Source: a virus | Taxonomy: Duplodnaviria; Heunggongvirae; Uroviricota; Caudoviricetes | Strand: one strand, 5' to 3' | Length of the DNA stretch: 64,000 bases | IMG/VR virus record: IMGVR_UViG_2799113093_000010 | Part shown: positions 12,640 to 46,601 of the stretch, piece after piece | Position numbering within the stretch: position 1 is the first letter of the stretch | Layout: every line of letters begins with the position of its first letter | Program-made: the position numbers and the translations under genes | Notes under the pieces: model-generated | Told to the model about the DNA's origin: nothing | The model's input: only the letters and a program-made list of their open reading frames with translations | The model's database searches: none

Positions 12640-12667
12640 GCGGGCTTTCCTCTCGTGAAATACGAAA

Positions 12668-12689
12668 GGCCGCCCCGGACGGGACGGCC
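12668..12689 (-). terminator. GC-rich hairpin followed by a U-rich tract upstream of the major tail gene (possible attenuator/terminator)
   Basis: The sequence GGCCGCCCCGGACGGGACGGCC forms an imperfect stem. On the minus transcript it is followed by UUUCGUAUUUC, then the RBS of the major tail gene. Confidence 0.3.
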
Positions 12690-12715
12690 TTATCTCTCCC
12701 GCGCGGGGCGGTGAG

Positions 12716-14632: not shown

Positions 14633-14667
14633 GAGATTTGTCTCCTCTCAAAGGGTTTGGAGGTGAA

Positions 14668-14705
14668 CCCCCAGCCCGATCCGGCTCGAACGGACGGGCT
14701 GGGGG
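14668..14705 (-). terminator. perfect 11-bp GC hairpin immediately downstream of the major capsid gene (RNA stability element/attenuator)
   Basis: CCCCCAGCCCG ... CGGGCTGGGGG with a 16-nt loop. It lies between the capsid stop (14718) and the next RBS (GAGAGGAGA). No U-tract follows. Confidence 0.4.
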
Positions 14706-14717
14706 TCACCTGGTGGG

Positions 14718-16091
14718 TCAGAACGTCGGCGCGGTGAGGCCGCTGATCTCGACCACGGACTGCGGGTAGCGCTCCGCGGTGAAGGCCAGGTAGCCGTACA
14801 CCTGCAGAGTCACCTGCAGGTTGTGGCCGCCCACCTCGTTGAGCACCCGGGTGCGGATACCCGACTCGAACAGCAGCAGGTCCGGGGCGCGCAGCACGTA
14901 CACCACGTCCTCGTCCGAGTTGGTCCCCAGGGTGGTGGGGAGGTTCGGGTCGGTGACCACGGGCAGGCCCTGGATTTCACCGACAACCTGCTGCGAGGCA
15001 ACAGCGTCGAGGGTGGCGACGTTGTTGAACGAGCGGCCGGCCGGCAGAACCAGCGGACGCTTCTGGCTGTCCAGCTGCCCGGTCAGCCACGCCCAGCGAC
15101 GCGGGTGCATAACCACGACGGTCGGCGACAGGAACCGCAGGGTGTGGACGCGCTGGATAGCGTCGGCCAGAGCCCCGTAGAACTTCGTCAGATCGACGGC
15201 GGTGACCGCGATGGTCTGGATACCCGGGGTGTTGTGAACACCCTTGACCTGCCCGGCGGTACCGGAACCGGTCAGGGTGGCCAGGTCCACCTTGGTGCCG
15301 TAATCCGCGATGAGGTCCTGGAACACGACCTCGTCGAAGTTGATCGGCGACTGATCCAGCAGCTGGATCGCGATGTTCTGCTCGCCGGCGATCGTGCGAA
15401 CATCCGCACGGATCTGGGCGTCCTGCAGGTCCTGCGAGGCGACGGCCGCGTTGTCGGCAGTCTGGGCTCCGACCAACGTTCCCCGGGTGACCTTGGGGAT
15501 GTTGATGCTGTCGGTGCCGGCGGGCAGGGGCTGCTGGGTGAGCAGGTTCGCGAAGGCGCGACCGGAGCGGGCCAGCTCGATGTACTGGCTCACCAGGTAG
15601 ATCGGCGGCACGAAGTAGCCGCCGTTGCCGTCGACGCGGTCCAGGGCACGGTAGTTCGCACCCTTGACGTCCACGGCGTGCCGACGCAGCCGCTCAGCAG
15701 CCGAACCGTCGGTGTCCTGGTTCATCGAGTACAGGACGAGGTCCTTGAAGTAGGACCGGCCGCTGCCCTTCTCGTATGCCGCGGCTTCCTTCACCTCGGC
15801 GATGCGGGCCTGCGCCTTGCGGACGGCCTGCGCCTGCGAGTCGAGGCGCCCGGAGCGCTCGATCTCGTCGGACAGTTCCTTGACGCGCTCGTCAAGGCCA
15901 TCGCACTCGGTCTGCTTCTTCGCGATCTCCGCGGTCTTGGCGCGGAATTCGACATCTTCCTCGGCAGACAGGTCCTCGCGGGCCTCTTCCTTGACGATGT
16001 CAGTGATGGCCTGTCGTTCGGCCATCAGCTTGTCCAGCTCCTCGCCGGCCTTGGCGCGCAGTGCAAGGAGCCGCTTCAGACGTTCCTCCAT
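14718..16091 (-). CDS. major capsid protein, HK97-fold, with N-terminal coiled-coil delta/scaffold domain (457 aa)
   Basis: Follows the prohead protease. The first roughly 100 aa are charged coiled-coil (MEERLKRLLALRAK...), consistent with a capsid that has its own delta domain. Confidence 0.85.
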   Translation of the reverse strand: MEERLKRLLALRAKAGEELDKLMAERQAITDIVKEEAREDLSAEEDVEFRAKTAEIAKKQTECDGLDERVKELSDEIERSGRLDSQAQAVRKAQARIAEVKEAAAYEKGSGRSYFKDLVLYSMNQDTDGSAAERLRRHAVDVKGANYRALDRVDGNGGYFVPPIYLVSQYIELARSGRAFANLLTQQPLPAGTDSINIPKVTRGTLVGAQTADNAAVASQDLQDAQIRADVRTIAGEQNIAIQLLDQSPINFDEVVFQDLIADYGTKVDLATLTGSGTAGQVKGVHNTPGIQTIAVTAVDLTKFYGALADAIQRVHTLRFLSPTVVVMHPRRWAWLTGQLDSQKRPLVLPAGRSFNNVATLDAVASQQVVGEIQGLPVVTDPNLPTTLGTNSDEDVVYVLRAPDLLLFESGIRTRVLNEVGGHNLQVTLQVYGYLAFTAERYPQSVVEISGLTAPTF

Positions 16092-16147
16092 GATGGGGAA
16101 CTCCTTTCAGTGGTTTGCCCTTGTGGGCGTGGTGTTTTCGGGGGATG

Positions 16148-16192
16148 CGCGCCCAGTGCCAGGGCTGTCCGCGGTGCCCGCCCAGTGCCAGG
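16148..16192 (-). repeat. 17-bp direct repeat GCCCAGTGCCAGGGCTG x2 in the protease-capsid intergenic region
   Basis: Copies at 16148-16164 and 16176-16192, lying between the terminator and the capsid start. Confidence 0.6.
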
Positions 16193-16212
16193 GCTGCGGC
16201 AGATTCCGGGCA

Positions 16213-16243
16213 ACAAAAAACACCCCGGGGATGCCGGGGTGTT
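16213..16243 (-). terminator. rho-independent terminator on the minus strand between the protease and capsid genes
   Basis: Perfect 10-bp stem AACACCCCGG/CCGGGGTGTT with a 5-nt loop. On the minus transcript it is followed by UUUUUUGUUG. Confidence 0.6.
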
Positions 16244-16301
16244 GAGTTGGTTGCCTGGAACGTTTTGTGGCGCGCCGGAATTGGCGCAGAGGGGAAGAGA
16301 G

Positions 16302-17186
16302 CTAGGCGACGCGGGTTGGGTCGATCTGGTTCAGCGCGTCCTCCAGGGACATGGGCTTGCCGTCGTCGGGTGCGAGCCCTTGGCGGCGCAGCGCCTCGTG
16401 CATCGACATGCCCTTGCGCTTCGGGGCCACCGTCTCAGCAGCAGCGGCTGCCGCTTCGGCGGCGCGCGCCGCGATGGCCTGAGCCTGCTTGGCTGCCTCG
16501 ATCAGGCGAGTACCGTGCGGGGCCTTGCCGATGCCGTCGAGCACCTGGCGGGCGCGGCGCAGCAGGTCGCTGTCCGAGCGCACCTCGGCGAGCTGCTGCG
16601 GGGTGCTGTCCGCAATCACCTTGAGCGCCTGATCAATCGACTTCAGCTCCGCGCTGGTGGTCGGGTTTGCGCCGAAATTCACTACCGACACGTCACCCTT
16701 GTGCAAGGACACCTCGGTGATGGTGCGATGCGCATAGTCGTCGTCGGGGAAGGCGTCGGTGGCCGTCCACTTCTGGGTCTTCACCCGGAACGCGAACGAC
16801 ATCTCGTCCATGTCGCCGCGCCGCATCTTGGCTTCGAGCCGCTGCACGTCCGGGTCCGACCGGTCGAGCTTCGCCTCCACCTTCAGCCCATGGCTGTCGG
16901 TGGACAGGGCCAGGGTGCCGGACTTGGTGCGCGCCAGCGGCATTCCCTCATGGTTGATGAGCAGATGCAGGTCCGGCTTCTCGCGCAGGGTCTTGTCGAA
17001 CGCCGACTTGTCCAGCTGCTCGATCCAGCCGCCCTCTGCGGGGCCGCCATACATCTCGTATGGCTCGAACGTGGACGCATACCCGGTCAGAATCAGCTCG
17101 TCGGAATCGTCGCTGACGCGCAGCTCGAACTGCCGCGCGGGCAGATGACGTTCCTCGCGGACGTCAATGAGGTTGTTGCGGTTCAT
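16302..17186 (-). CDS. capsid maturation (prohead) protease, HK97 family (294 aa)
   Basis: Lies between the portal and capsid genes and overlaps the portal gene by 4 nt. Confidence 0.8.
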   Translation of the reverse strand: MNRNNLIDVREERHLPARQFELRVSDDSDELILTGYASTFEPYEMYGGPAEGGWIEQLDKSAFDKTLREKPDLHLLINHEGMPLARTKSGTLALSTDSHGLKVEAKLDRSDPDVQRLEAKMRRGDMDEMSFAFRVKTQKWTATDAFPDDDYAHRTITEVSLHKGDVSVVNFGANPTTSAELKSIDQALKVIADSTPQQLAEVRSDSDLLRRARQVLDGIGKAPHGTRLIEAAKQAQAIAARAAEAAAAAAETVAPKRKGMSMHEALRRQGLAPDDGKPMSLEDALNQIDPTRVA

Positions 17187-18493
17187 TGCTCGTTGTCCTC
17201 CTCGTCCGGTTCCTGCTCCACGTCGTCTTCGGCGTCGGGGATGTCGTCTTCCGGTTCGTTATCGGTGGGCTCCGGGTCTTCACCGCTCTGCTGCCCGTTC
17301 GCGGGTGTCCAGCCGAGCGGGCCAAAGTTGATGGGCTGAATTCGGCCGTCCCCGTATGGAACTGGCGGAAGGTCCTCGAAGGCGCGGATATCGTCGACGC
17401 TGTAGGCGCCCATCTCGCGGCCCATCTTGTACGCCTCGAAGCGGGACTTCATGTCGCCACGGAGCAGACCGTCCAGGTTGAACTTGACGAACGTGCCGCG
17501 GGGAAGCATCTGAGAGAACGCTTGCTCGATGCACGTCAGCCACGGCTGCAGCGTGAACTTCACGAACCCGAGGGTCTGCTGCTCGATGCCGGTGCCCCAG
17601 GAAGTGGTCTTGGCGACATCGCCTATCATGTGGGGAGGGATGCGGAACAGCATCGCGATCTCGCCCCGCTGATACTTTCGAACCTCAAGGAACTGAGATT
17701 CTGTGGGGGACAAAGCAATTGGACGCCACTTCACGCCCCCGGACAGGATCGCAGGACGTCGCCGGCCTTGGTGGCTGGCGATCCACTGCTGCATGATGTG
17801 CTTGGCCTGGTCCTGGTCAAGGTTCTCCGAGGTTTCCAGAACCGACGACGGGTTCGCCGAGTCTTTGAAATAGTTCAGGCCGTACCGTTCGGCGGCCAAC
17901 GCGATCCCGATGGCCGCGGCGGCACGCTGCACCGGTGACATACCGAGCGCGGCATCGGCGATGGGATACCGCTTCATATGCACCATGTCGCCGCTGCGGA
18001 TCGTCTCGCCGTCGACCCGATAGGTCGGCTCCATCCAGCTGCGCCTGTCGGTGACGGTGACGGTCACAAAGTCCGGGTGCACCGGCATCAAACCGCGCGG
18101 ATATCCCATGCTGTCCCGTGACACAACGAGATTGAAGGCGTTTCCGGTGACGGCCATGGCCTCCATCAGCATCCACAGCCACTCGAACAACGTGCAGTCC
18201 ACAAACGGCTGCTGCACAAACAAGGGCTGCGGATCCAACAAGACCCGGCGCTGGCCTTGCTGCTTGTATGCGACCAGTTGCAGGGACGCGATGGTGTCGG
18301 CGAGCAGGGTGACGCAGGCGGTGAACGCGGCGACCTGAGTTTCCCGGGCGCCGCGCGGGGTCACGCTGTAGCTGTTCGACCCCCACGGATACATGGCGTC
18401 GTCCTCGGCCGGCGACGGCACGAACGACGAGCTGGTCAGCACCCGCTCCTCGGCGGCCGGTGGCCGGGCGAAGGCGCGGGACAGGAAGCTCAC
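17183..18493 (-). CDS. portal protein (436 aa)
   Basis: Position after TerL; size; very acidic C-terminal tail (EDPEPTDNEPEDDIPDAEDD). Confidence 0.85.
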   Translation of the reverse strand: MSFLSRAFARPPAAEERVLTSSSFVPSPAEDDAMYPWGSNSYSVTPRGARETQVAAFTACVTLLADTIASLQLVAYKQQGQRRVLLDPQPLFVQQPFVDCTLFEWLWMLMEAMAVTGNAFNLVVSRDSMGYPRGLMPVHPDFVTVTVTDRRSWMEPTYRVDGETIRSGDMVHMKRYPIADAALGMSPVQRAAAAIGIALAAERYGLNYFKDSANPSSVLETSENLDQDQAKHIMQQWIASHQGRRRPAILSGGVKWRPIALSPTESQFLEVRKYQRGEIAMLFRIPPHMIGDVAKTTSWGTGIEQQTLGFVKFTLQPWLTCIEQAFSQMLPRGTFVKFNLDGLLRGDMKSRFEAYKMGREMGAYSVDDIRAFEDLPPVPYGDGRIQPINFGPLGWTPANGQQSGEDPEPTDNEPEDDIPDAEDDVEQEPDEEDNEQ

Positions 18494-18696
18494 TCGCTAA
18501 CCCCCGTACTCACAGCCATTTTCGGGGGGTCCAGCGCCAAACCGACCACGATCAGCGCGATTCCGCCGACAATCAGCCCCAACCACGGGGCAACCAGCCA
18601 GAATCCGCCCACAATCGCGGCGACACCGACCAGCTCCACCGTCACTGACAGCACCGAAATCAGCGAGATATGCGCTGGCGCAGCGGAATCCGCCAC
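18490..18696 (-). CDS. small membrane protein (68 aa, two predicted TM helices)
   Basis: Hydrophobic segments LISVLSVTVELVGVAAIVGGFWLVAPWLGLIVGGIALIVVGLAL. Coupled between the TerL and portal genes. Confidence 0.45.
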   Translation of the reverse strand: MADSAAPAHISLISVLSVTVELVGVAAIVGGFWLVAPWLGLIVGGIALIVVGLALDPPKMAVSTGVSE

Positions 18697-20306
18697 TACT
18701 CGCCGCCATCCTTAAGCCACTCCATGATCTCCTCCTCGGTGGGCCATTCGTGAATGTTCGGGACCTTCTTTGGTTCCTCCAGGCCATGGGACTCAGCCCA
18801 CGCCGCCGCGGCGCACGCCAGCAGCGGAGAAGCATCGACCGGCGACCCCTTGCGGTCGAAAACCCATGCGTCGCCGAGTGGTCGGGCGCCCGTCGACGCT
18901 GCCGCTGCATCCAGAGCAGGGGAGGGACGGTGCCGGATATTGCGTTGGATGACCTTGTCGAACAGGTCCCCGCAGCCCTTCGTGAGGTCTGAACCGCCCC
19001 ATTCCAGTACGGGGATACCGGCTTTCACCATGTCGGGGATGAGGCCGGACACGGGGGCGCCGCGCACCTGCGCCGCGACGGCCTGGAACTTGCCGACGCG
19101 TTCCTCGGTGGTGAACCAGGGGACTATCCAGTCGGTGCCGCGCTCGGCCGCCGCAATCTCGATGTGCAGCAGCCCATCTTGGCGCCGCGACGCGATTGCA
19201 ATGTAGGAACGGGACCGTTCGAAGTTCACATCAACTGCAGCCCACACAGGTGCCCCCTCAGCCCGCCTGGATTGCGGGTCGATCGTGGCCTCCCAGTGCT
19301 CGGCCGGGAGAATGCCGGGGGCGAGGGTGTCCACCCACTGGCACAGGTGCTCGGTCTTGAAGCCGGCGATGTCGGCGCGCTTGGCCTCCAACTTCGCGGC
19401 GAGCGCGTCCTCGTCCCAGCCGGGCAGCCATCCCATCGCCGGGTTGGCCATCGGCCAGAACTCGCGCTCGGTCGGGTCGGAGTCGTCGGGGACCGACCAC
19501 TCGAACAGGCCAGTCAGCGTTTCCGACGTGGTCCGCGAGAAGATGTCGGTCAGGCAGCCGTCGCGCAGCGACCGCAGCACCACCGACCGTTTGTCGCCGG
19601 CGTTCGATGCCGCAACAACCTGGCTGTTCTCCCGGGCAGTTGTGGTGGGCGCCACCGCATCCCAGGTGAGCCAGTCGTGGTGCTCACGCAGCTCGTCCAT
19701 CTCGGCAAGGTCCACCGACAGCGATCGGCCGGCCTTGCGGTTCGCGGCCATCGCCCGCCACACCCGCTTGCCGGTCAAGAACATGGCGTGCTTGCCGTTC
19801 GCGGTGCGGTGCCACCGGAACTCGGACTTCAGGACCGGGCATTCCTTGACGTCGTCGACGACCTCGCCCAGCGTCGCCTCGGCGTACTCCAGGCCCTGCG
19901 CGGTGACGAGCACAGTCTTGGCTGGCGGCGGCTTCCCGGGAACGAACTTGCCGGTCGGATTGACATACATTCGCCAGAGCCCAAGTCCCTTGAGCCACTG
20001 GGTCTTTCCGTTCTGGCGCGCGATGAGAACGACGACAGTGCGGAACCTGAATCCGGTGCCGGTGGCGCTCTTTTCCAGAGCGTGGATATACAGCCACTTC
20101 TGGTAGGGCAGCAGCTCCCAGTGCAGGACGTTCTCAAGGAAGTCAATGCACGAAAAGCCCCACGACGTAGCCGAATTGAGGCCGCAGCCGCACATGCAGC
20201 CGTCTGGGAGGCCTTTGTCGCAGTGCTCAGGTAGCGGTGGTGTGAATAGCCGTGGGGTGGTGGAACCCTTAAGCGTTCTGTCGAGAACGCCAGGCGGCGA
20301 GGTCAC
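18696..20306 (-). CDS. terminase large subunit (536 aa)
   Basis: Walker A-like motif VLIARQNGKT; C-terminal nuclease-like region; canonical position upstream of the portal gene. Confidence 0.9.
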   Translation of the reverse strand: MTSPPGVLDRTLKGSTTPRLFTPPLPEHCDKGLPDGCMCGCGLNSATSWGFSCIDFLENVLHWELLPYQKWLYIHALEKSATGTGFRFRTVVVLIARQNGKTQWLKGLGLWRMYVNPTGKFVPGKPPPAKTVLVTAQGLEYAEATLGEVVDDVKECPVLKSEFRWHRTANGKHAMFLTGKRVWRAMAANRKAGRSLSVDLAEMDELREHHDWLTWDAVAPTTTARENSQVVAASNAGDKRSVVLRSLRDGCLTDIFSRTTSETLTGLFEWSVPDDSDPTEREFWPMANPAMGWLPGWDEDALAAKLEAKRADIAGFKTEHLCQWVDTLAPGILPAEHWEATIDPQSRRAEGAPVWAAVDVNFERSRSYIAIASRRQDGLLHIEIAAAERGTDWIVPWFTTEERVGKFQAVAAQVRGAPVSGLIPDMVKAGIPVLEWGGSDLTKGCGDLFDKVIQRNIRHRPSPALDAAAASTGARPLGDAWVFDRKGSPVDASPLLACAAAAWAESHGLEEPKKVPNIHEWPTEEEIMEWLKDGGE

Positions 20307-23510: not shown

Positions 23511-23945
23511 TCAGCGGGTGCTGGGTGGCTTCAGGGTGTCTGCGTCGCCGACGCACGGGCAGGAGTCCATGGTGTCGCCGCCGTGCCATGGATGTGCGGG
23601 CTCAGGGCACTCGCCGGGTGTGTGGGGCTGGTGGGGGCCGCAGTACCCGCACAGCGGGTCCGGTGCCGGAACGTCAGGGCGTTGCACGAGGACGTGGACC
23701 CGGTGCCAGGTGTACTCGGAGACGTCGCCGGCGACCTGACCGGACAGTGCTGTCAGCTGCTCCTGCTTGAGGGTGGCCAGGTTGAGGATGCTGTGTGCGT
23801 ACGTGACCAGGACAAGGCCCTCGGCGTTCGCCTTGTTCTCCCACCACTCGCGGTGCAGCCACAACCACACGTCGGAGTCGGCGTCCGGTGGCAGCGGGGT
23901 GATCTGGGTGTACTCGCGCTCGTCGATCGGCTCGGTGCTCACCAT
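23511..23945 (-). CDS. hypothetical protein (about 144 aa, Cys-rich C-terminus)
   Basis: Real start is probably MVSTEPIDE... (ATG at 23945). The upstream part of the track ORF is junk. Confidence 0.4.
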   Translation of the reverse strand: MVSTEPIDEREYTQITPLPPDADSDVWLWLHREWWENKANAEGLVLVTYAHSILNLATLKQEQLTALSGQVAGDVSEYTWHRVHVLVQRPDVPAPDPLCGYCGPHQPHTPGECPEPAHPWHGGDTMDSCPCVGDADTLKPPSTR

Positions 23946-25794: not shown

Positions 25795-26326
25795 CGGGTT
25801 CTCCTTCGGTGATGACGGGGGTGATGTCGGTGCGGTCGGACAGCATGTCCAGGGCGAGGTCGATGGGGACGCCTTGCAGCCATATCGGGACAGCAGGATT
25901 TGGCATCGCGTCGAGTCTCCTTGTGCCACAACATGTTTAAACTTCCCGTTGTGCGTGCGCAGCGCACCCTCTCCCTGGAGATAAGTCGGGTGTCCTGGGT
26001 GTCGGCCCCGTCTCCGTTCAACAGCAAGAACGGATACCGACTGGGGCCTGATAGCTGCGGCGCCCGCGCGAGGGGCTGGCCGGCGGCCGTGCGCTTATCG
26101 GTGATGTAGCCGGGTTGACGCGACGCACAGACGGGAAGTGGCCTCGGGAAACGAGAGAGCCCCGACCGCTGGGGGTTAGCAGTCGGGGCTCAGCTATCGG
26201 CGCGAAGATACAGCTTCGCTTGCCCACCTGTATAACACGTCACAGCGACCAGCGACGGCAACGCTCACCGAGTGGGTGTGTCGTGCTGATTCGACGCTGG
26301 TTATCCGTGCGGGAGCCTTTGCGTCA

Positions 26327-33042: not shown

Positions 33043-34766
33043 AGGTCGCCGCGGGAGAAATCGGCCAGCAGCTGCGGCACTGCGGAGTCGAACCCGGACA
33101 CGTCGAGCTGCCCCGGGTCGGTCGGATCCGCGATGCTGTTGCCGGTCGCGGTCATCGCGACAACCACCAGGCGTGCATCGATGCCCATGGTGTCCCGGTA
33201 CTCGCGGAGCGCCTGGTGCGGATGCATCGACCCGTAGAACGTCTCGTTGTCGGTGTAGACGTGGAACGTGTCGATCTCGATCCGGTTCTTGCGCGCCCAG
33301 ATCATCGGCAGCGCGCAGTCGGTGTTCCCGAAGTCCAGCTCGCCGGTGTAGCGGCACACGTCGTCGAGACGCCGGCGCGGGGTGATGTCCAGCGGCGCCA
33401 CCGCCGTCGCATACCCGCGGAAGTGGCCGGTGCGCGAATGCACGTAGCTGCCAGGCCCGGCGGTGAAGCCGATGATCTGGTGATCCGTCTCGACGTTGGC
33501 AGTGACCAGCGCCAGGGCGGCTGCGGCCTCGCGGCACGACACCGGCAGCCCGGACACCGACCGCGTCATCGACCCGGACACGTCCAGAGCCAGCAGCGTC
33601 CGCTTACCGGCAGGCTCGACCGCGCCATAGGCGTTGTAGAACGCGGCATCGAGCGCGTCGACGATCCGCGCCACCGGCATCCAAGTGGAGTCGCCGCGCG
33701 CCGAGTGGCCCGACGCGTAGGTGCGCAGCGCCACCAGCGCGTTGATCGGATGCACGCGGCCCTTCCGCAGCCGCTCGGAGTCCTGCAGCTGCGCGGCGAC
33801 CTTGTTCCCGATGGTGCCGGCGAGGACACCGAGGCGAGTCAGGCGCGGCAGCTGCCGCATCAGCGCAGTCTGGGGCAGACCGTGCTCGATCAGCGCCTCC
33901 CACACCTCCGGCTTGGTGAGCGCGGCGTCGGGCAGCGCCTCCCACGGAAGAGCGTTGCCACGCTTGATGATCTTCACCCAGTCCCGCGCCGTGGTGGCAC
34001 GCTGCGCGTCCTCGAAGTCGGCGATGATCGCCAGCGGGTGGCCGTCGCTCAGCTCGATATCGGGCAGCTTGGGGCGTGCGGTGTTCCGGTCGCCGGCCTT
34101 CAGCTCGTCCGGGTTCAGCTCGCGGACCTTGTCGGCGTAGTCGTTGAGGCCCTTGCCGACAGCCCAGTTGAACGCGAGGCGCCGCGCCGGGTCCTTCGTG
34201 ACGGGCGAGGAGAGCCGCAGCAGGTCGCGGTGCATCCATCCCTCGCGCTGCCGGTACTTGACCAGCTGGTAGGCGACACGGTCGACGCCCTTGTCCAGAT
34301 ACCAGGAGCCGACCGCACGCTTCATCGCCGGACCCCAGCCACGGAACTGCTCCATGTACTTCACGAACAGGTACAGGTGGGTGCCGGTGCGCGCCACGCT
34401 GGGCAGAGCGGCAGCCGCGGCGCGGCGTCCCTCCACGTCATCGGAGGCTGCGGCGACCGCGAGCGCGAACAGCGCCGGGTTCTGCTTCGGCGCCCGGCCA
34501 GCGACCGACACCTCCACGATGTGCTGCACCAGCCGCACCGGATCCGCGGCGGCGGCACGGAACACCACCTCGGCGTTCTCCCGAGTCAGCTCGGCCGCGT
34601 TGGTGTAGTAGGTGCCGCCGTCGGTACCCAGCGTCAGGAACCGGTGCAGCCTCACCTCGTCGGACACCGCGAACGCGAACCCGCCGGCCGCGTTCTTCAC
34701 CTGCCGGGGGTCCGCCTTCACCGTCTGCGCGGTGCGGCGGGTGCTGATCGTCGAAAGAACGTCCAT
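33039..34766 (-). CDS. rsr: Ro60 ortholog (Rsr): TROVE domain plus C-terminal vWA domain (about 575 aa)
   Basis: TROVE-like N-terminal region (MDVLSTISTRRTAQTVKADPRQVKNAAGGFAFAV..., HLYLFVKYMEQFRGWG). vWA MIDAS motif LALDVSGSMT. RBS CAGAGGAGA before the ATG at 34766. The 115-aa upstream extension in the track ORF overlaps the ncRNA array and is rejected. Confidence 0.8.
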   Translation of the reverse strand: MDVLSTISTRRTAQTVKADPRQVKNAAGGFAFAVSDEVRLHRFLTLGTDGGTYYTNAAELTRENAEVVFRAAAADPVRLVQHIVEVSVAGRAPKQNPALFALAVAAASDDVEGRRAAAAALPSVARTGTHLYLFVKYMEQFRGWGPAMKRAVGSWYLDKGVDRVAYQLVKYRQREGWMHRDLLRLSSPVTKDPARRLAFNWAVGKGLNDYADKVRELNPDELKAGDRNTARPKLPDIELSDGHPLAIIADFEDAQRATTARDWVKIIKRGNALPWEALPDAALTKPEVWEALIEHGLPQTALMRQLPRLTRLGVLAGTIGNKVAAQLQDSERLRKGRVHPINALVALRTYASGHSARGDSTWMPVARIVDALDAAFYNAYGAVEPAGKRTLLALDVSGSMTRSVSGLPVSCREAAAALALVTANVETDHQIIGFTAGPGSYVHSRTGHFRGYATAVAPLDITPRRRLDDVCRYTGELDFGNTDCALPMIWARKNRIEIDTFHVYTDNETFYGSMHPHQALREYRDTMGIDARLVVVAMTATGNSIADPTDPGQLDVSGFDSAVPQLLADFSRGDL

Positions 34767-36575: not shown

Positions 36576-37576
36576 GCCGACTCCTTCACCGTCGACGCAC
36601 GCCGATCCTCCGGCGCCCGGTGCGGCTCCGGGCCTTCGGTGAGCGCCAACACCACCACGTCGGCGAGCTGCAAACCGAGCCGAGCCGCATCCGCACCAGG
36701 CTTCGCCGCGTCCTCCTTCACCCGCTCGGTGCCGGAGCGAAGCTGATCGAGCCGCCAATACGCCTCAGCCAGCAGCCATTTCAAGATGTCCATCTGAACC
36801 CTCTCCTTCTGTGCGTCGGTGATCAGTCCCTGCAGCCACTCGTATTCGTGTTCCTGCCACCACGACCCGCATGCCGTGCAGTCGTAGGTGGTGGTGCCGT
36901 CCCAGCGGCCGACCGCATGCGCATGGCACTGCGGGCATTCGCCGTTGTCGTGAGCGCGGAGCCGCTCCAAACCCATCTCCAGATAGACAGCGCGGGACAC
37001 GTCCGCGATAGCGAGCGCCACCTCCACGCCGTCCATCTCGGTCAGCTCCCGCGGCTGCCCGGTCGAAGCCCAGCCGTCGTCGCCGTCCGGGACCGGCGCC
37101 CACCGCACCATCGCTTGCTCCTGCTGGGCCAACAGCACGGCGAGGTTCGGTTCGAGCACCTTCACGGCGCGCTCGACGGTGGCCTTCTCGTGCGCGGGGA
37201 ACCCGAGGCGGCCGTGACGCTGCTTGCCGTCCAGATTCAGGGCCTGCTCCACCATCTCGACGGCACGATCGGACAGCTCAACGATCCGCTGCTGCAGCGC
37301 CTCCCGGCGCGTGTTGATCGGGATGGTCAGCTCCCGGGTCATCGCCACCCGAGCACCTTGGGATGGCCGGCGCTCGCCGATTCCCTCGTGCAGGCGGCGC
37401 CAGTCCCGCGGCAATCCCTTGATGGCGCGCCGCAGTTTCTCCAGGCAGCCGTCGCACAGCGGGCCGTCGATGATCATGCCGCCCTGCGGATCACCGGTTT
37501 CCGGGTGACGGTGCACCATGTCCCGGTTCACACACCGCGGACCCCAGGCGCACCGATGCTTGTCGTACACGGTCAC
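36572..37576 (-). CDS. hypothetical protein with Cys-rich N-terminus (about 334 aa)
   Basis: GTG at 37576 overlaps the upstream stop (GTGA). Cys motifs CAWGPRC...CDGC and later CPQCHAH...CTAC. Confidence 0.45.
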   Translation of the reverse strand: MTVYDKHRCAWGPRCVNRDMVHRHPETGDPQGGMIIDGPLCDGCLEKLRRAIKGLPRDWRRLHEGIGERRPSQGARVAMTRELTIPINTRREALQQRIVELSDRAVEMVEQALNLDGKQRHGRLGFPAHEKATVERAVKVLEPNLAVLLAQQEQAMVRWAPVPDGDDGWASTGQPRELTEMDGVEVALAIADVSRAVYLEMGLERLRAHDNGECPQCHAHAVGRWDGTTTYDCTACGSWWQEHEYEWLQGLITDAQKERVQMDILKWLLAEAYWRLDQLRSGTERVKEDAAKPGADAARLGLQLADVVVLALTEGPEPHRAPEDRRASTVKESA

Positions 37577-46393: not shown

Positions 46394-46601
46394 CTGGTTA
46401 TCTCCTTGGAGTTGAGGCTGTTTGGGTTATCCGCCGCCGGATATTTCGCCGGCGTCGTGTCTGACATTCGGATTGACGGCGTTGGCGATGGCCTGGCAGT
46501 CGGGGCAGACGCTGATCACGAACCTGGCGCGGAACTCGCCGTCGCACAGCTGGCAGAAGAAGTAGAACCAGGTCAGGGATGGCTTGCGGAGCATCAGTTG
46601 G

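Follow-up and report, generated by a model that had tools for sequence, protein, structure and literature searches.

The whole stretch of DNA analysed, 64,000 nucleotides long and called the window here, carries on its minus strand a portal gene (PF04860), followed by the genes of a prohead protease and of the major capsid protein, also on the minus strand. The last two are separated by a 210-nt gap that opens at the stop codon of the protease gene. In the direction of transcription, the features of the gap and its flanks are:

16302..17186, minus strand: prohead (capsid maturation) serine protease gene (PF04586 Peptidase_S78, E 2.4e-33)
16203..16260, minus strand: extended H1 helix, part of the minimum-free-energy fold of the gap (-33.0 kcal/mol folded alone)
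16219..16243, minus strand: H1, a perfect 10-bp stem (7 GC pairs) with a 5-nt loop (-17.5 kcal/mol)
16211..16220, minus strand: U tract UUUUUUGUUG, the first two U being the last two bases of the H1 stem
16148..16203, minus strand: H2–H3 core matched by covariance model R1, with an outer helix CUGCCGC / GCGG-A-CAG around H2
16180..16194, minus strand: H2, GGCAC-loop hairpin GCCC-U-GGCAC-U-GGGC (repeat copy 1)
16151..16165, minus strand: H3, identical second GGCAC-loop hairpin (repeat copy 2)
16117..16128, minus strand: H4, small hairpin GCCC-ACAA-GGGC (-7.4 kcal/mol), 9 nt upstream of the ribosome-binding site
16101..16108, minus strand: Shine-Dalgarno sequence GAAAGGAG, read from the sequence
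16082..16101, minus strand: H5, hairpin predicted by folding, with the capsid AUG in or adjoining its loop
14718..16091, minus strand: major capsid protein gene, HK97 type with an N-terminal coiled-coil domain (PF05065 Phage_capsid, E 8e-17)
14662..14710, minus strand: hairpin of about 21 bp, 7 nt past the capsid stop codon, without a U tract (-39.7 kcal/mol; z-score of the region -4.4)

The protease is 66% identical to the capsid maturation protease of prophiGD43A-5, and the capsid protein shares 81% identity with capsids of IMG/VR prophages and 68–70% with those of Bipper, prophiT37-1 and prophiGD43A-5. A gap of about 130–220 nt is kept in most of 100 loci, namely those among 164 retrieved in which both the protease and the capsid gene could be placed. 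The Shine-Dalgarno region is kept among relatives as GAAAGGA. A small open reading frame in the gap (46 codons, TTG start, 16076–16216) was dismissed as not credible because relatives show indels there.

H1, on the minus strand from 16243 to 16219, reads AACACCCCGG-CAUCC-CCGGGGUGUU and is followed by UUUUGUUG. A sequence-only reading of this DNA had described a perfect 10-bp hairpin with a U tract between the protease and capsid genes, which is confirmed at 16219–16243, followed by UUUUUUGUUG. The distance of 90 nt to the capsid start given at that time has to be corrected, as H1 ends 127 nt and the U tract 119 nt before the capsid ATG at 16091. The hairpin had also been called a textbook rho-independent terminator, and from its sequence it would qualify as one: the anatomy of intrinsic terminators (a GC-rich stem of at least about 6 bp, a loop of 3–8 nt and a U-rich tract directly after the stem) is complete and in the transcribed orientation, and it is conserved with compensatory changes in mycobacteriophage relatives. 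Read on the plus strand, the palindrome is without a T tail, and H1 is thus unidirectional. Under strict conditions (9 or more stem pairs, 6 or more of them GC, and 5 or more T in 8), both strands of the window together contain only four terminator-like sites, compared with 0.7 ± 0.8 in 40 dinucleotide shuffles.

Homologues of H1 in ten leaders of the mycobacterial clade show compensatory changes at five pairs (e.g. AU:4/GC:4 and CG:4/GC:3/AU:1), the hairpin being kept in mycobacteriophage clusters J and Y and in Mycobacterium abscessus prophages. These homologues were judged by reading the sequences, since a strict terminator scan of all the gaps under-counts them because A–U pairs at the base of the stem use up the T run. 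In relatives the U tract takes the forms UUUUUUCGUG, UUUUUCGUG, UUUUUCGGG and UUUUUGCAUG, or the weaker UUUGUCGUG and UUUCGUCGUC. It is missing from the Streptomyces and Nocardia clades, so that an H1 with a U tract is specific to the mycobacterial clade and the leader cannot have had termination as its ancestral role. At one locus (L169), H1 itself has the GGCAC form, with an 11-bp stem and UUUUGCGUUGG after it, and this connects H1 with the first GGCAC hairpin in those Streptomyces and Nocardia leaders that have three hairpins.

In the minimum-free-energy fold of the gap, UUCCAGGCAAC.. upstream of H1 pairs with the U tract and with the following GUUGCCCGGAA; according to this model, the extended helix can form only after read-through. 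Similar outer pairing around H1 is seen by eye, without statistics, in prophiGD43A-5 and Bipper. A long-range pairing proposed by RNAalifold, between a conserved UUCC motif before H1 and the ribosome-binding site, was rejected because UUCC is kept in Streptomyces-type leaders where the sequence flanking the ribosome-binding site is non-complementary.

H1 resembles canonical (L-shaped) rho-independent terminators, among them the internal ones that a modified polymerase reads through in phage late operons, in its perfect GC-rich stem, short loop, immediate U run and sense orientation. It differs from them in its position within the head operon, where it immediately precedes the most needed gene and no promoter follows it, and in having a sister-clade homologue in which a GGCAC loop is found instead of a U tract. 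Mycobacterial RNA polymerase reportedly requires U tracts for intrinsic termination. A terminator immediately upstream of the most needed gene is counter-intuitive, and this counts against the explanation proposed below. A second hairpin with a U-rich tail is found 27 nt upstream of the major tail protein gene, which suggests that the late operon is partitioned by hairpins of this kind.

No sigma-70-like promoter match was found in the 210-nt gap, which contains zero TA dinucleotides and therefore no TANNNT -10 element; this element is likewise absent from the gaps of eight of nine relatives. With no promoter in the gap, the capsid gene must be transcribed through H1. The sequence-only reading had left a choice between attenuated read-through from the upstream genes and a separate capsid transcript. 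Read-through fits the promoterless gap, whereas the separately promoted transcript finds neither a -10 element nor a sigma-70-like match. A related proposal is that the repeats downstream of H1 act in the DNA, either as operator or activator sites or as an unconventional late promoter, and so give rise to a separate capsid transcript after the terminator. A pair of identical sites spaced by 29 bp, roughly three turns of the helix, would suit such a role in this position between a terminator and the most expressed gene, and TGGCAC is the -24 element of sigma-54 promoters. However, the sigma-54 -12 element (TTGC, 5 nt after TGGCAC) is absent from the gap and is not conserved in relatives: TGGCAC is followed here by TGGGC-GGGCA and TGGGC-GCGCA and in relatives by variable sequence, neither of which gives TGGCAC-N5-TTGCW. 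To our knowledge, actinobacteria have no sigma-54. Together with the behaviour of the repeats across relatives, described next, this makes control at the DNA level very unlikely.

The repeats themselves are as the earlier reading had them, two exact copies of the 17-mer GCCCAGTGCCAGGGCTG after the hairpin (16151–16167 and 16180–16196); the sole other match in the window needs three mismatches, 0.45 matches being expected by chance. They extend to 22 nt at 95% identity (16146–16167 / 16175–16196), with a spacing of 29 nt. On the minus strand each copy forms a GGCAC-loop hairpin, H2 and H3, both of them weak (4 bp plus U.U, -7.5 kcal/mol). The 28 nt CAGCCCUGGCACUGGGCGCGCAUCCCCC of the H3 region are identical in phage Bipper, the region being about 70% identical overall. 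The outer helix around H2 is also present in the minimum-free-energy fold and in the Streptomyces consensus. Model R1, built from 17 Streptomyces-type leaders only, was searched against 128 kb (the window, both strands) and had its best match at 16148–16203 on the minus strand, with 29.1 bits and an E of about 0.002 by a rough calibration, the next match having 22 bits. The window contains two GGCAC hairpins of the capsid-leader kind, both in the capsid leader. Other GGCAC hairpins in it (e.g. 36721–36741 and 23658–23672) lie in probable coding sequence and are without U.U or C-G closure.

The same hairpins are concentrated in the protease–capsid gaps of 86 distinct relatives from Mycobacterium, Nocardia and Streptomyces. 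Counting stems of at least 4 bp, 123 GGCAC hairpins are found in 16.8 kb of gap, whereas the flanking sense strand has 47 in 573 kb and the antisense strand 43 in 590 kb. At least one is present in 55 of the 86 distinct gaps, mostly in two or three copies, 45–146 nt upstream of the ATG and always on the capsid sense strand. Pairing arms flank 78% of GGCAC occurrences inside the gaps and 16% outside. The apical loop GGCAC is invariant and closed by U.U or C-G, on a variable stem of 4–13 bp; it persists in prophages of Mycobacterium, Nocardia and Streptomyces that share no more than 52–61% identity in their capsids, while the stems turn over. The stem covariation score of 110 distinct units is 0.459, compared with 0.161 ± 0.013 for shuffled ones (0/500 reach 0.459) and with at most 0.20 for slid partners, and the stem pairs 4-18, 5-17 and 6-16 each show five to six pair types. 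The units were pre-selected (at least three of the four inner pairs) and are phylogenetically related, which inflates the percentage paired, not the diversity of pair types. As a test of the strand on which the structure forms, single non-Watson–Crick stem positions were counted; G.U/U.G outnumber A.C/C.A by 16 to 8 (p = 0.15), which is only suggestive.

These patterns do not bear out the idea that the repeats are regulator sites in the DNA. Compensating arms, a fixed core, constant orientation and variable spacing instead mark an RNA hairpin with a sequence-specific loop, not to a duplex DNA operator. Palindromic arms that vary around a fixed asymmetric centre are the reverse of what a dimeric DNA operator shows, the spacing (29, 31 or 45 nt) and the number of copies (1 to 4) change between relatives, and in Nocardia prophages a GGCAC hairpin is also found past the capsid gene.

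Several partners of the loop within the RNA or the ribosome were considered and set aside. Kissing between GGCAC loops was rejected, GGCAC not being self-complementary, and so was pairing of the loop with H4, as the GUGCC required occurs in H4 of cluster-J-like leaders, not here nor in Bipper. The 16S rRNA 530 loop has the sequence GUGCCAG, and the complementarity of CUGGCAC to it is unlikely to matter. The constraint lies within the hairpin, because the U turns to C exactly when its hairpin partner turns to G (23 C-G closures). A likeness of the antisense CAGUGCC to the iron-responsive element fails, the register of stem and loop being wrong and the motif always sense to the capsid gene. Mimicry of an anticodon loop or a T-loop by the GGCAC hairpin was also discarded, since it would place a G at position 33.

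Across IMG/VR, two tandem CCTGGCACTGG were found at 77 sites, 47 of them followed by a capsid homologue. Two others stand before an ORF resembling a tail assembly chaperone and one is at a contig end, the rest being coding repeats of Pro-Gly-Thr-Gly. A looser pattern returned mostly such coding repeats, with a hairpin context in 15 of 120 loci. In two prophages the capsid leader is duplicated before the chaperone and tape-measure genes. The closest capsid relatives (81%) are prophages whose hairpin loops are AGCUC, UGCUC, CGCUC, AGAUC and AGGUC instead of GGCAC. The type of loop does not track capsid or protease similarity, and nothing was found to co-vary with it among the relatives compared. 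This leaves two options, a looser loop rule (N-G-N-N-C) or a partner from outside the head module.

This distribution bears on autogenous control, in which translation of the capsid gene would be repressed or timed by one of two proteins attaching to the GGCAC hairpins: the capsid protein, through an N-terminal domain that resembles a scaffold, or the protease. Models for it are the self-regulation of the P22 scaffolding protein and the binding of RNA-phage coat proteins to their operators. The motif occurs in IMG/VR almost only with this capsid lineage, which would follow if the module also encoded the partner, and a start codon within a conserved hairpin would offer a handle for translational control. 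The exclusive linkage to the capsid is, however, equally explained by vertical inheritance of a cis element; the loop type follows neither of the candidate proteins, and the leader duplicated before a tail chaperone gene has no obvious place in such a circuit. We therefore regard autogenous control as improbable. In Mu Com–mom translational activation and at the coat operators of RNA phages (MS2, PP7), a protein recognises a hairpin near a sequestered translation start (compare H5 here) in a late or structural gene, but those systems rely on a single site, whereas tandem sites 45–146 nt upstream are found here. We know of no Com-like or coat-like RNA binder in these phages.

The remaining structures of the leader surround the capsid cistron. 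At the position of H4, relatives have GCCC-AACA-GGGC, CCCCAA..UUGGGG, GUGCCCAAA..UUUGGGCA or GCCCCG-AGC-GGGGC, and RNAalifold scored two pairs only. In H5, the bases immediately 5' of the AUG pair with codons 2–4; its arms vary by clade (CUCC..GGAG, CUCGUC-AUG-GACGAG, CGCUCAUGGAUGAGCG), and in 43 of 66 distinct relatives some or all bases of the capsid start codon are paired. At the other end of the gene, most relatives have a perfect stem of 10–19 bp located 5–25 nt past the capsid stop codon, the loop of which is GGCAC in six Nocardia loci. The capsid cistron is thus bracketed, here and in most relatives, by leader hairpins on its 5' side and by a strong hairpin past its stop codon.

Such bracketing could be achieved without any dedicated factor, H1–H4 and the post-capsid hairpin serving as passive intercistronic barriers to RNases (3'–5' exonucleases, RNase J, RNase E) or as blocks to Rho loading, with GGCAC kept because it helps the hairpin to fold or because a general host RNase cuts there. 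In favour of this, hairpins stand on both sides of the capsid cistron and ahead of the major tail gene, the untranslated gap, rich in C, would otherwise offer Rho a good substrate, other loop sequences are tolerated in the sister clade, and a leader copied before a different gene in two prophages is what a generic expression module would produce. On the other hand, any loop would do for a barrier, but it is GGCAC that persists as the stems change, and the weakness of H2 and H3 would make them poor exonuclease barriers. Passive hairpins are for these reasons an unlikely explanation, though a better one than the other alternatives. The intercistronic RNase III sites of T7 and the segmental mRNA stabilisation of puf and mal offer similar examples of conserved hairpins between late or structural cistrons, and by analogy the hairpins described here could cut the polycistronic RNA into segments with stabilities of their own. 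For RNase III sites, however, H2 and H3 (4–5 bp) are far too short, and it is the loop that is conserved here, not an internal bubble.

Short tandem hairpins with a sequence-specific loop, within a long operon that contains terminator-like hairpins, also recall processive antitermination of the nut type. In that case, a phage or host protein assembled on the nascent GGCAC hairpins would make RNA polymerase resistant to downstream terminators, namely the post-capsid hairpin and the pre-tail hairpin, along the long structural operon; the second leader before the chaperone and tape-measure genes of two prophages would be a possible reloading site. The boxB hairpin of lambda nut, bound by N, likewise has a stem of about 5 bp, a specificity loop of about 5 nt and variable stems, and acts in nascent phage RNA. 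Nevertheless, GGCAC is unlike the GNRA-like pentaloop of boxB (GNRNA), there are two to four copies, and the sites are about 4–5 kb into the operon, not near a promoter. The GGCAC hairpins also lie downstream of the adjacent terminator, H1, and so cannot suppress it. Antitermination is therefore improbable as the function of these hairpins.

Two further systems invite comparison. ANTAR targets, known in mycobacteria, also consist of two adjacent small hairpins with conserved loop positions near a terminator or a ribosome-binding site. These targets have hexaloops in which the first position is A and the fourth G, whereas the loop here is GGCAC, or the heptaloop UGGCACU, and does not have this pattern. 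The SAS and ESAS motifs of Cluster K mycobacteriophages are likewise short, conserved and repeated upstream of genes, with a presumed role in expression. SAS are linear, 13 bp long and overlap the ribosome-binding sites of many genes genome-wide; the GGCAC hairpin, in contrast, is structural, confined to the capsid leader and found across several host genera.

The whole window gave zero Rfam matches at the gathering threshold, and a search of 16050–16340 at E up to 10 gave only sub-threshold noise (SNORA77, anti-hemB) and no ANTAR family; the best match, SNORA77, scored 22.6 bits compared with a gathering score of 42. The Cluster J paper makes no mention of a terminator, promoter or stem-loop in the protease–capsid gap (PMC3706429), and the D29/L5 RNA-seq paper contains nothing on the capsid leader. 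Literature searches returned no RNA-seq paper on cluster J or Y phages or these prophages, and nothing relevant on CTGGCACTGG or CUGGCACUGG, their complements, TGGCAC capsid stem-loops or conserved stem-loops of actinobacteriophages. The capsid leader with GGCAC hairpins is not in Rfam, and no paper describing it was found in the searchable literature.

The explanation that we favour, with modest confidence, is that the 210-nt gap is a structured 5' RNA leader of the capsid message, in which a leaky H1 and GGCAC sites for a factor give a discrete capsid mRNA. The leader of GGCAC hairpins probably controls the capsid mRNA. The leader would be embedded in a late polycistronic transcript that runs through terminase, portal, protease and capsid and onward. 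In the mycobacterial clade, H1 with its U tract would act as a hairpin of the intrinsic-terminator type; having no promoter after it, it must be leaky or overridden. It may stop part of the transcription and may also provide the 3' hairpin that closes the terminase–portal–protease segment. H2 and H3 would be the recognition sites of one putative RNA-binding or RNA-cleaving factor, encoded by the phage or by the host, which would set the stability, processing or translation of the capsid mRNA. The leader hairpins, together with H4, the start-codon hairpin and the post-capsid hairpin, would delimit this mRNA and set its stability and translation, and the most abundant virion protein could thereby be made from a message common to low-copy proteins. 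What the sequences show is the features themselves, with their conservation, their covariation, their specificity for strand and position, and the lack of a sigma-A -10 element. Termination in vivo, a factor that binds the hairpins and any influence on stability or translation are what we infer.

A bolder version of this proposal can be put forward only tentatively. In it, the GGCAC array would represent an undescribed class of cis-regulatory RNA, restricted to the capsid cistron of siphoviruses of Actinobacteria that form a widespread lineage (Mycobacterium clusters J and Y, together with prophages of M. abscessus, Nocardia and Streptomyces). The GGCAC loop would be recognised by a protein dedicated to it, on the 5' side of the capsid mRNA and in some clades also on the 3' side, and that mRNA would thereby be excised, stabilised or switched on in translation.

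How unequal amounts of head proteins are obtained from one late transcript is understood in few model phages and hardly at all in actinobacteriophages. The leader described here is a conserved and compact RNA element placed exactly where the decision on the amount of capsid protein must fall. It is common to phages that are cultivable and genetically tractable (Bipper, Omega and other cluster J phages, on M. smegmatis), which makes the question directly testable. The GGCAC hairpin also provides a simple sequence marker for the start of the capsid gene when annotating this phage lineage. If a specific factor exists, the hairpin and its factor would make a portable module for the control of expression in mycobacteria and Streptomyces. 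If, in addition, the bolder version were true, these phages would have a post-transcriptional way to make capsid subunits by the hundred from an operon that also encodes proteins needed in 12 copies.

The head genes of the window share about 70% DNA identity with the M. abscessus prophages prophiGD43A-5 and prophiT37-1, and with mycobacteriophages of cluster Y (Bipper, Typha) and cluster J (Omega, others), and elsewhere in the window the two prophages match at about 78%. These matches indicate a mycobacterial temperate phage or prophage, one without a close sequenced relative among isolated phages. The stretch at about 34167-34766 is 77% identical to mycobacteriophage genes annotated as 'Ro-like RNA binding protein' (Sparky, prophiGD43A-5 gene 52). 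The late genes are arranged as follows:

18696-20306, minus strand: large terminase (phrog_9)
17183-18493, minus strand: portal (PF04860)
16302-17186, minus strand: S78 prohead protease (PF04586)
16092-16301, minus strand: untranslated gap of 210 nt, the protease-capsid interval
14718-16091, minus strand: HK97-type major capsid protein (PF05065)
beyond the capsid gene, minus strand: head-tail adaptors, tail terminator, major tail protein and tail chaperone

The terminase-portal gap (18490-18696, minus strand) is filled exactly by a very hydrophobic ORF of 68 codons; a small gene is annotated there in Bipper and Omega, and not in prophiGD43A-5. The 210-nt gap contains a series of hairpins:

16243-16219, minus strand: H1, read as RNA AACACCCCGG-CAUCC-CCGGGGUGUU, then UUUUUUGUUG
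16194-16180, minus strand: H2, GCCC-U-GGCAC-U-GGGC
16165-16151, minus strand: H3, identical to H2
16128-16117, minus strand: H4, GCCC-ACAA-GGGC
16108-16101, minus strand: ribosome-binding site, GAAAGGAG
16101-16082, minus strand: H5, in which the bases directly 5' of the AUG pair with codons 2-4

H2 and H3 correspond to the two exact 17-mers described as direct repeats in the sequence-only reading; the repeat in fact reaches 22 nt at 95% identity with a spacing of 29 nt. The distance of 90 nt given there from hairpin to capsid gene has to be corrected, H1 ending 127 nt before the capsid ATG. The window contains four hairpin-plus-T-run sites of the strength of H1, where shuffled sequence gives 0.7 +/- 0.8, and the H1 terminator taken alone is ordinary. 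H5 holds the capsid start codon within a conserved hairpin whose arms vary by clade (CUCC/GGAG, CUCGUC/GACGAG, CGCUCAU/AUGAGCG), a pairing that may in turn constrain the conserved M-[ED]-E-R capsid N-terminus. The 3' flank of H3 (16146-16156, CUGGGCGCGCA) is complementary at 10 of 11 positions to capsid codons 11-14 (16050-16060, UGCGCGCCAAG), and such a possible long-range pairing would surround H4, the ribosome-binding site and the AUG. Ahead of the leader's first hairpin, at 16251-16261 in the window and at the homologous site in most relatives, lies a short motif, (A/G)UUUCC, ACUUCC or AUUCCA, that is present in the mycobacterial, Nocardia and Streptomyces clades; its complementarity to the ribosome-binding site is inconsistent.

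In each of the four annotated relatives the protease-capsid gap measures 182-221 nt and its parts follow the same order. A further 160 loci of capsid relatives were fetched, half from GTDB genomes and half from IMG/VR (80 each); of 164 loci in all, 100 allowed both the protease stop and the capsid start to be located, and in most of these 100 the gap is 130-220 nt long. In the gaps read, the repeat is a hairpin with a fixed GGCAC loop and varying stems (GGCC/GGCC, GCCC/GGGC, GGUC/GAUC, GUCG/CGAC, CUC/GAG and others), mostly in two or three copies per leader and in four copies in one. By this comparison the gap is a conserved element of predicted structure. In the sister clade nearest by capsid (81%), AGCUC, UGCUC, CGCUC, AGAUC or AGGUC loops, all with G second and C fifth in the loop, occupy the same positions; non-GGCAC loops are found at the H2/H3 positions in the gaps of relatives' loci L001, L002, L026 and L085-L092, and in the first hairpin of L112, L118 and L128, and they can coexist with GGCAC within a single leader. 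Either N-G-N-N-C is the feature that counts, or the putative partner differs in that clade. In capsid relatives at a greater distance (33-44% identity; L051, L057, L071, L076, L078, L083) this gap has another repeated motif, with two or three copies of CGCCGGAG(C) as well as GGCCACCAC. Repetition of short motifs in the capsid leader, each clade having sequences of its own, may be a more general habit.

Across 86 distinct loci, GGCAC hairpins with a stem of at least 4 bp numbered 123 in 16.8 kb of protease-capsid gaps (sense strand), 47 in 573 kb of flanking sequence (sense strand) and 43 in 590 kb of antisense strand, an enrichment in gaps of about 90-fold. At least one was found in 55 of the 86 gaps, the loops lying 45-146 nt upstream of the ATG. 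In a gap-free alignment of 110 distinct 21-nt units, which are phylogenetically related and were selected for at least three of four inner pairs, the covariation score was 0.459, against 0.161 +/- 0.013 in shuffles (none of 500 as high) and at most 0.20 in every slid register. Five or six standard pair types occur at each of the stem pairs 4-18, 5-17 and 6-16, and next to the loop 84 units have U.U and 23 have C-G. The strand test of G.U against A.C (16 versus 8, p = 0.15) is only suggestive of RNA, for which the unchanging orientation and the asymmetry of the loop argue more strongly. The proposal of the sequence-only reading, of DNA sites at the repeats or a separately promoted capsid transcript, appears improbable.

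Membership was also assessed with a covariance model built from 17 Streptomyces-type H2-H3 cores and zero mycobacterial sequences, in which an outer helix (GCUGUCG/CGACGGC) encloses H2 and H3 follows. With filters off, its top match in the window was 16148-16203 on the minus strand (29.1 bits, E about 0.002), taking in the window's own outer helix, CUGCCGC/GCGG-A-CAG; the second-best match (22 bits, 46481-46543, plus strand) has no GGCAC loops. The whole of IMG/VR has 77 sites with CCTGGCACTGG twice in tandem within 6-36 nt; 47 of them have a homologue of the window's capsid at most 1.8 kb downstream, and one, arranged in the same way, lies at a contig end. Two more, in the Streptomyces-type prophages L170 (9305-9346) and L296 (minus strand, 1925-1967 of the reversed locus), are near-identical copies of H2, H3 and the ribosome-binding site (one mismatch in about 85 nt), about 8.7 kb downstream of the capsid leader and before a 155-aa ORF. 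This ORF, whose first 50 residues have no Pfam match, has the tail genes on one side and the tape-measure region on the other and is read as a tail assembly chaperone. The remaining sites are Pro-Gly-Thr-Gly repeats within coding sequence of unrelated viruses. On these counts the element is all but exclusive to the head-gene lineage of the window, yet movable.

The H1 stem covaries in ten mycobacterial-clade leaders (AU:4/GC:4; CG:4/GC:3/AU:1; GC:4/CG:3) and is followed by a U run (UUUUUUCGUG, UUUUUCGUG, UUUUUCGGG, UUUUUGCAUG; weaker in Bipper, UUUGUCGUG, and L026, UUUCGUCGUC), the window having the best tract of all. The Streptomyces and Nocardia clades lack a U tract at their first hairpin, a long stem with GGCAC, sometimes AGCUC; in L169 the first hairpin carries GGCAC on 11 bp, and UUUUGCGUUGG comes after it. 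We conclude that H1 is a homologue of the first GGCAC hairpin that gained terminator features in the mycobacterial clade, which would make termination a clade-specific addition and not the ancestral role of the leader. The separate capsid promoter also proposed earlier found no support: a consensus scan of the gap was empty, and the lack of any TA dinucleotide in its 210 nt rules out TANNNT, a motif also absent from the gaps of eight of nine relatives. Mycobacterial SigA promoters depend on TANNNT, and with none in the gap transcription of the capsid gene must, on this prediction, start upstream of the terminase gene and pass through H1, which could then not be an efficient unconditional terminator. 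That the GGCAC hairpins are nut-like antitermination sites is in our estimate a long shot.

Two further hairpins follow in the late operon. One (14662-14710, minus strand; about 21 bp, -39.7 kcal/mol, no U tract) lies 7 nt past the capsid stop, a place that most capsid relatives occupy with a perfect stem of 10-19 bp; six Nocardia prophage loci (L012-L016, L030) have GGCAC as the apical loop here, on stems that covary. The other (12666-12691, minus strand), an 11-bp GC hairpin, AAGGCCGUCCC-GUCC-GGGGCGGCCUU, then the U-rich UCGUAUUUCA, lies between the tail terminator and major tail protein genes, 27 nt before the ATG of the latter, and resembles the AAGGCC...GGCCUU form of H1 in relatives. Together with the capsid leader, these hairpins thus split the late operon into four segments: terminase-portal-protease, capsid, connector genes and tail genes. 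The strongest terminator-like hairpin of the window (26157-26191, minus strand; 14-bp stem with 10 GC pairs, then UCUCGUUUCC) is located at the edge of a lower-GC stretch (26-28 kb), possibly marking the end of another leftward transcription unit.

At the level of sequence, the data show a leader that is RNA-level and capsid-specific. In the picture that we rank as most likely, and hold at slightly better than even, H1 would be a leaky terminator or 3'-end hairpin, and the GGCAC hairpins putative recognition sites for one factor that would govern how the capsid message is processed, how stable it is or how it is translated. This picture agrees with the 3' hairpin that brackets the message and with the start-codon hairpin. 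Hairpins that are purely passive are an unlikely reading of the same arrangement, and autogenous control by the capsid or the protease, a special case of recognition by one factor, is less probable still. No Rfam family matches the window or the gap, and the element is undescribed in the searchable literature, a scope that covers few subscription journals, so that an earlier description is possible. The conserved GGCAC hairpin leader is apparently an RNA motif not described before, with a putative partner, and phages that carry it are experimentally tractable.
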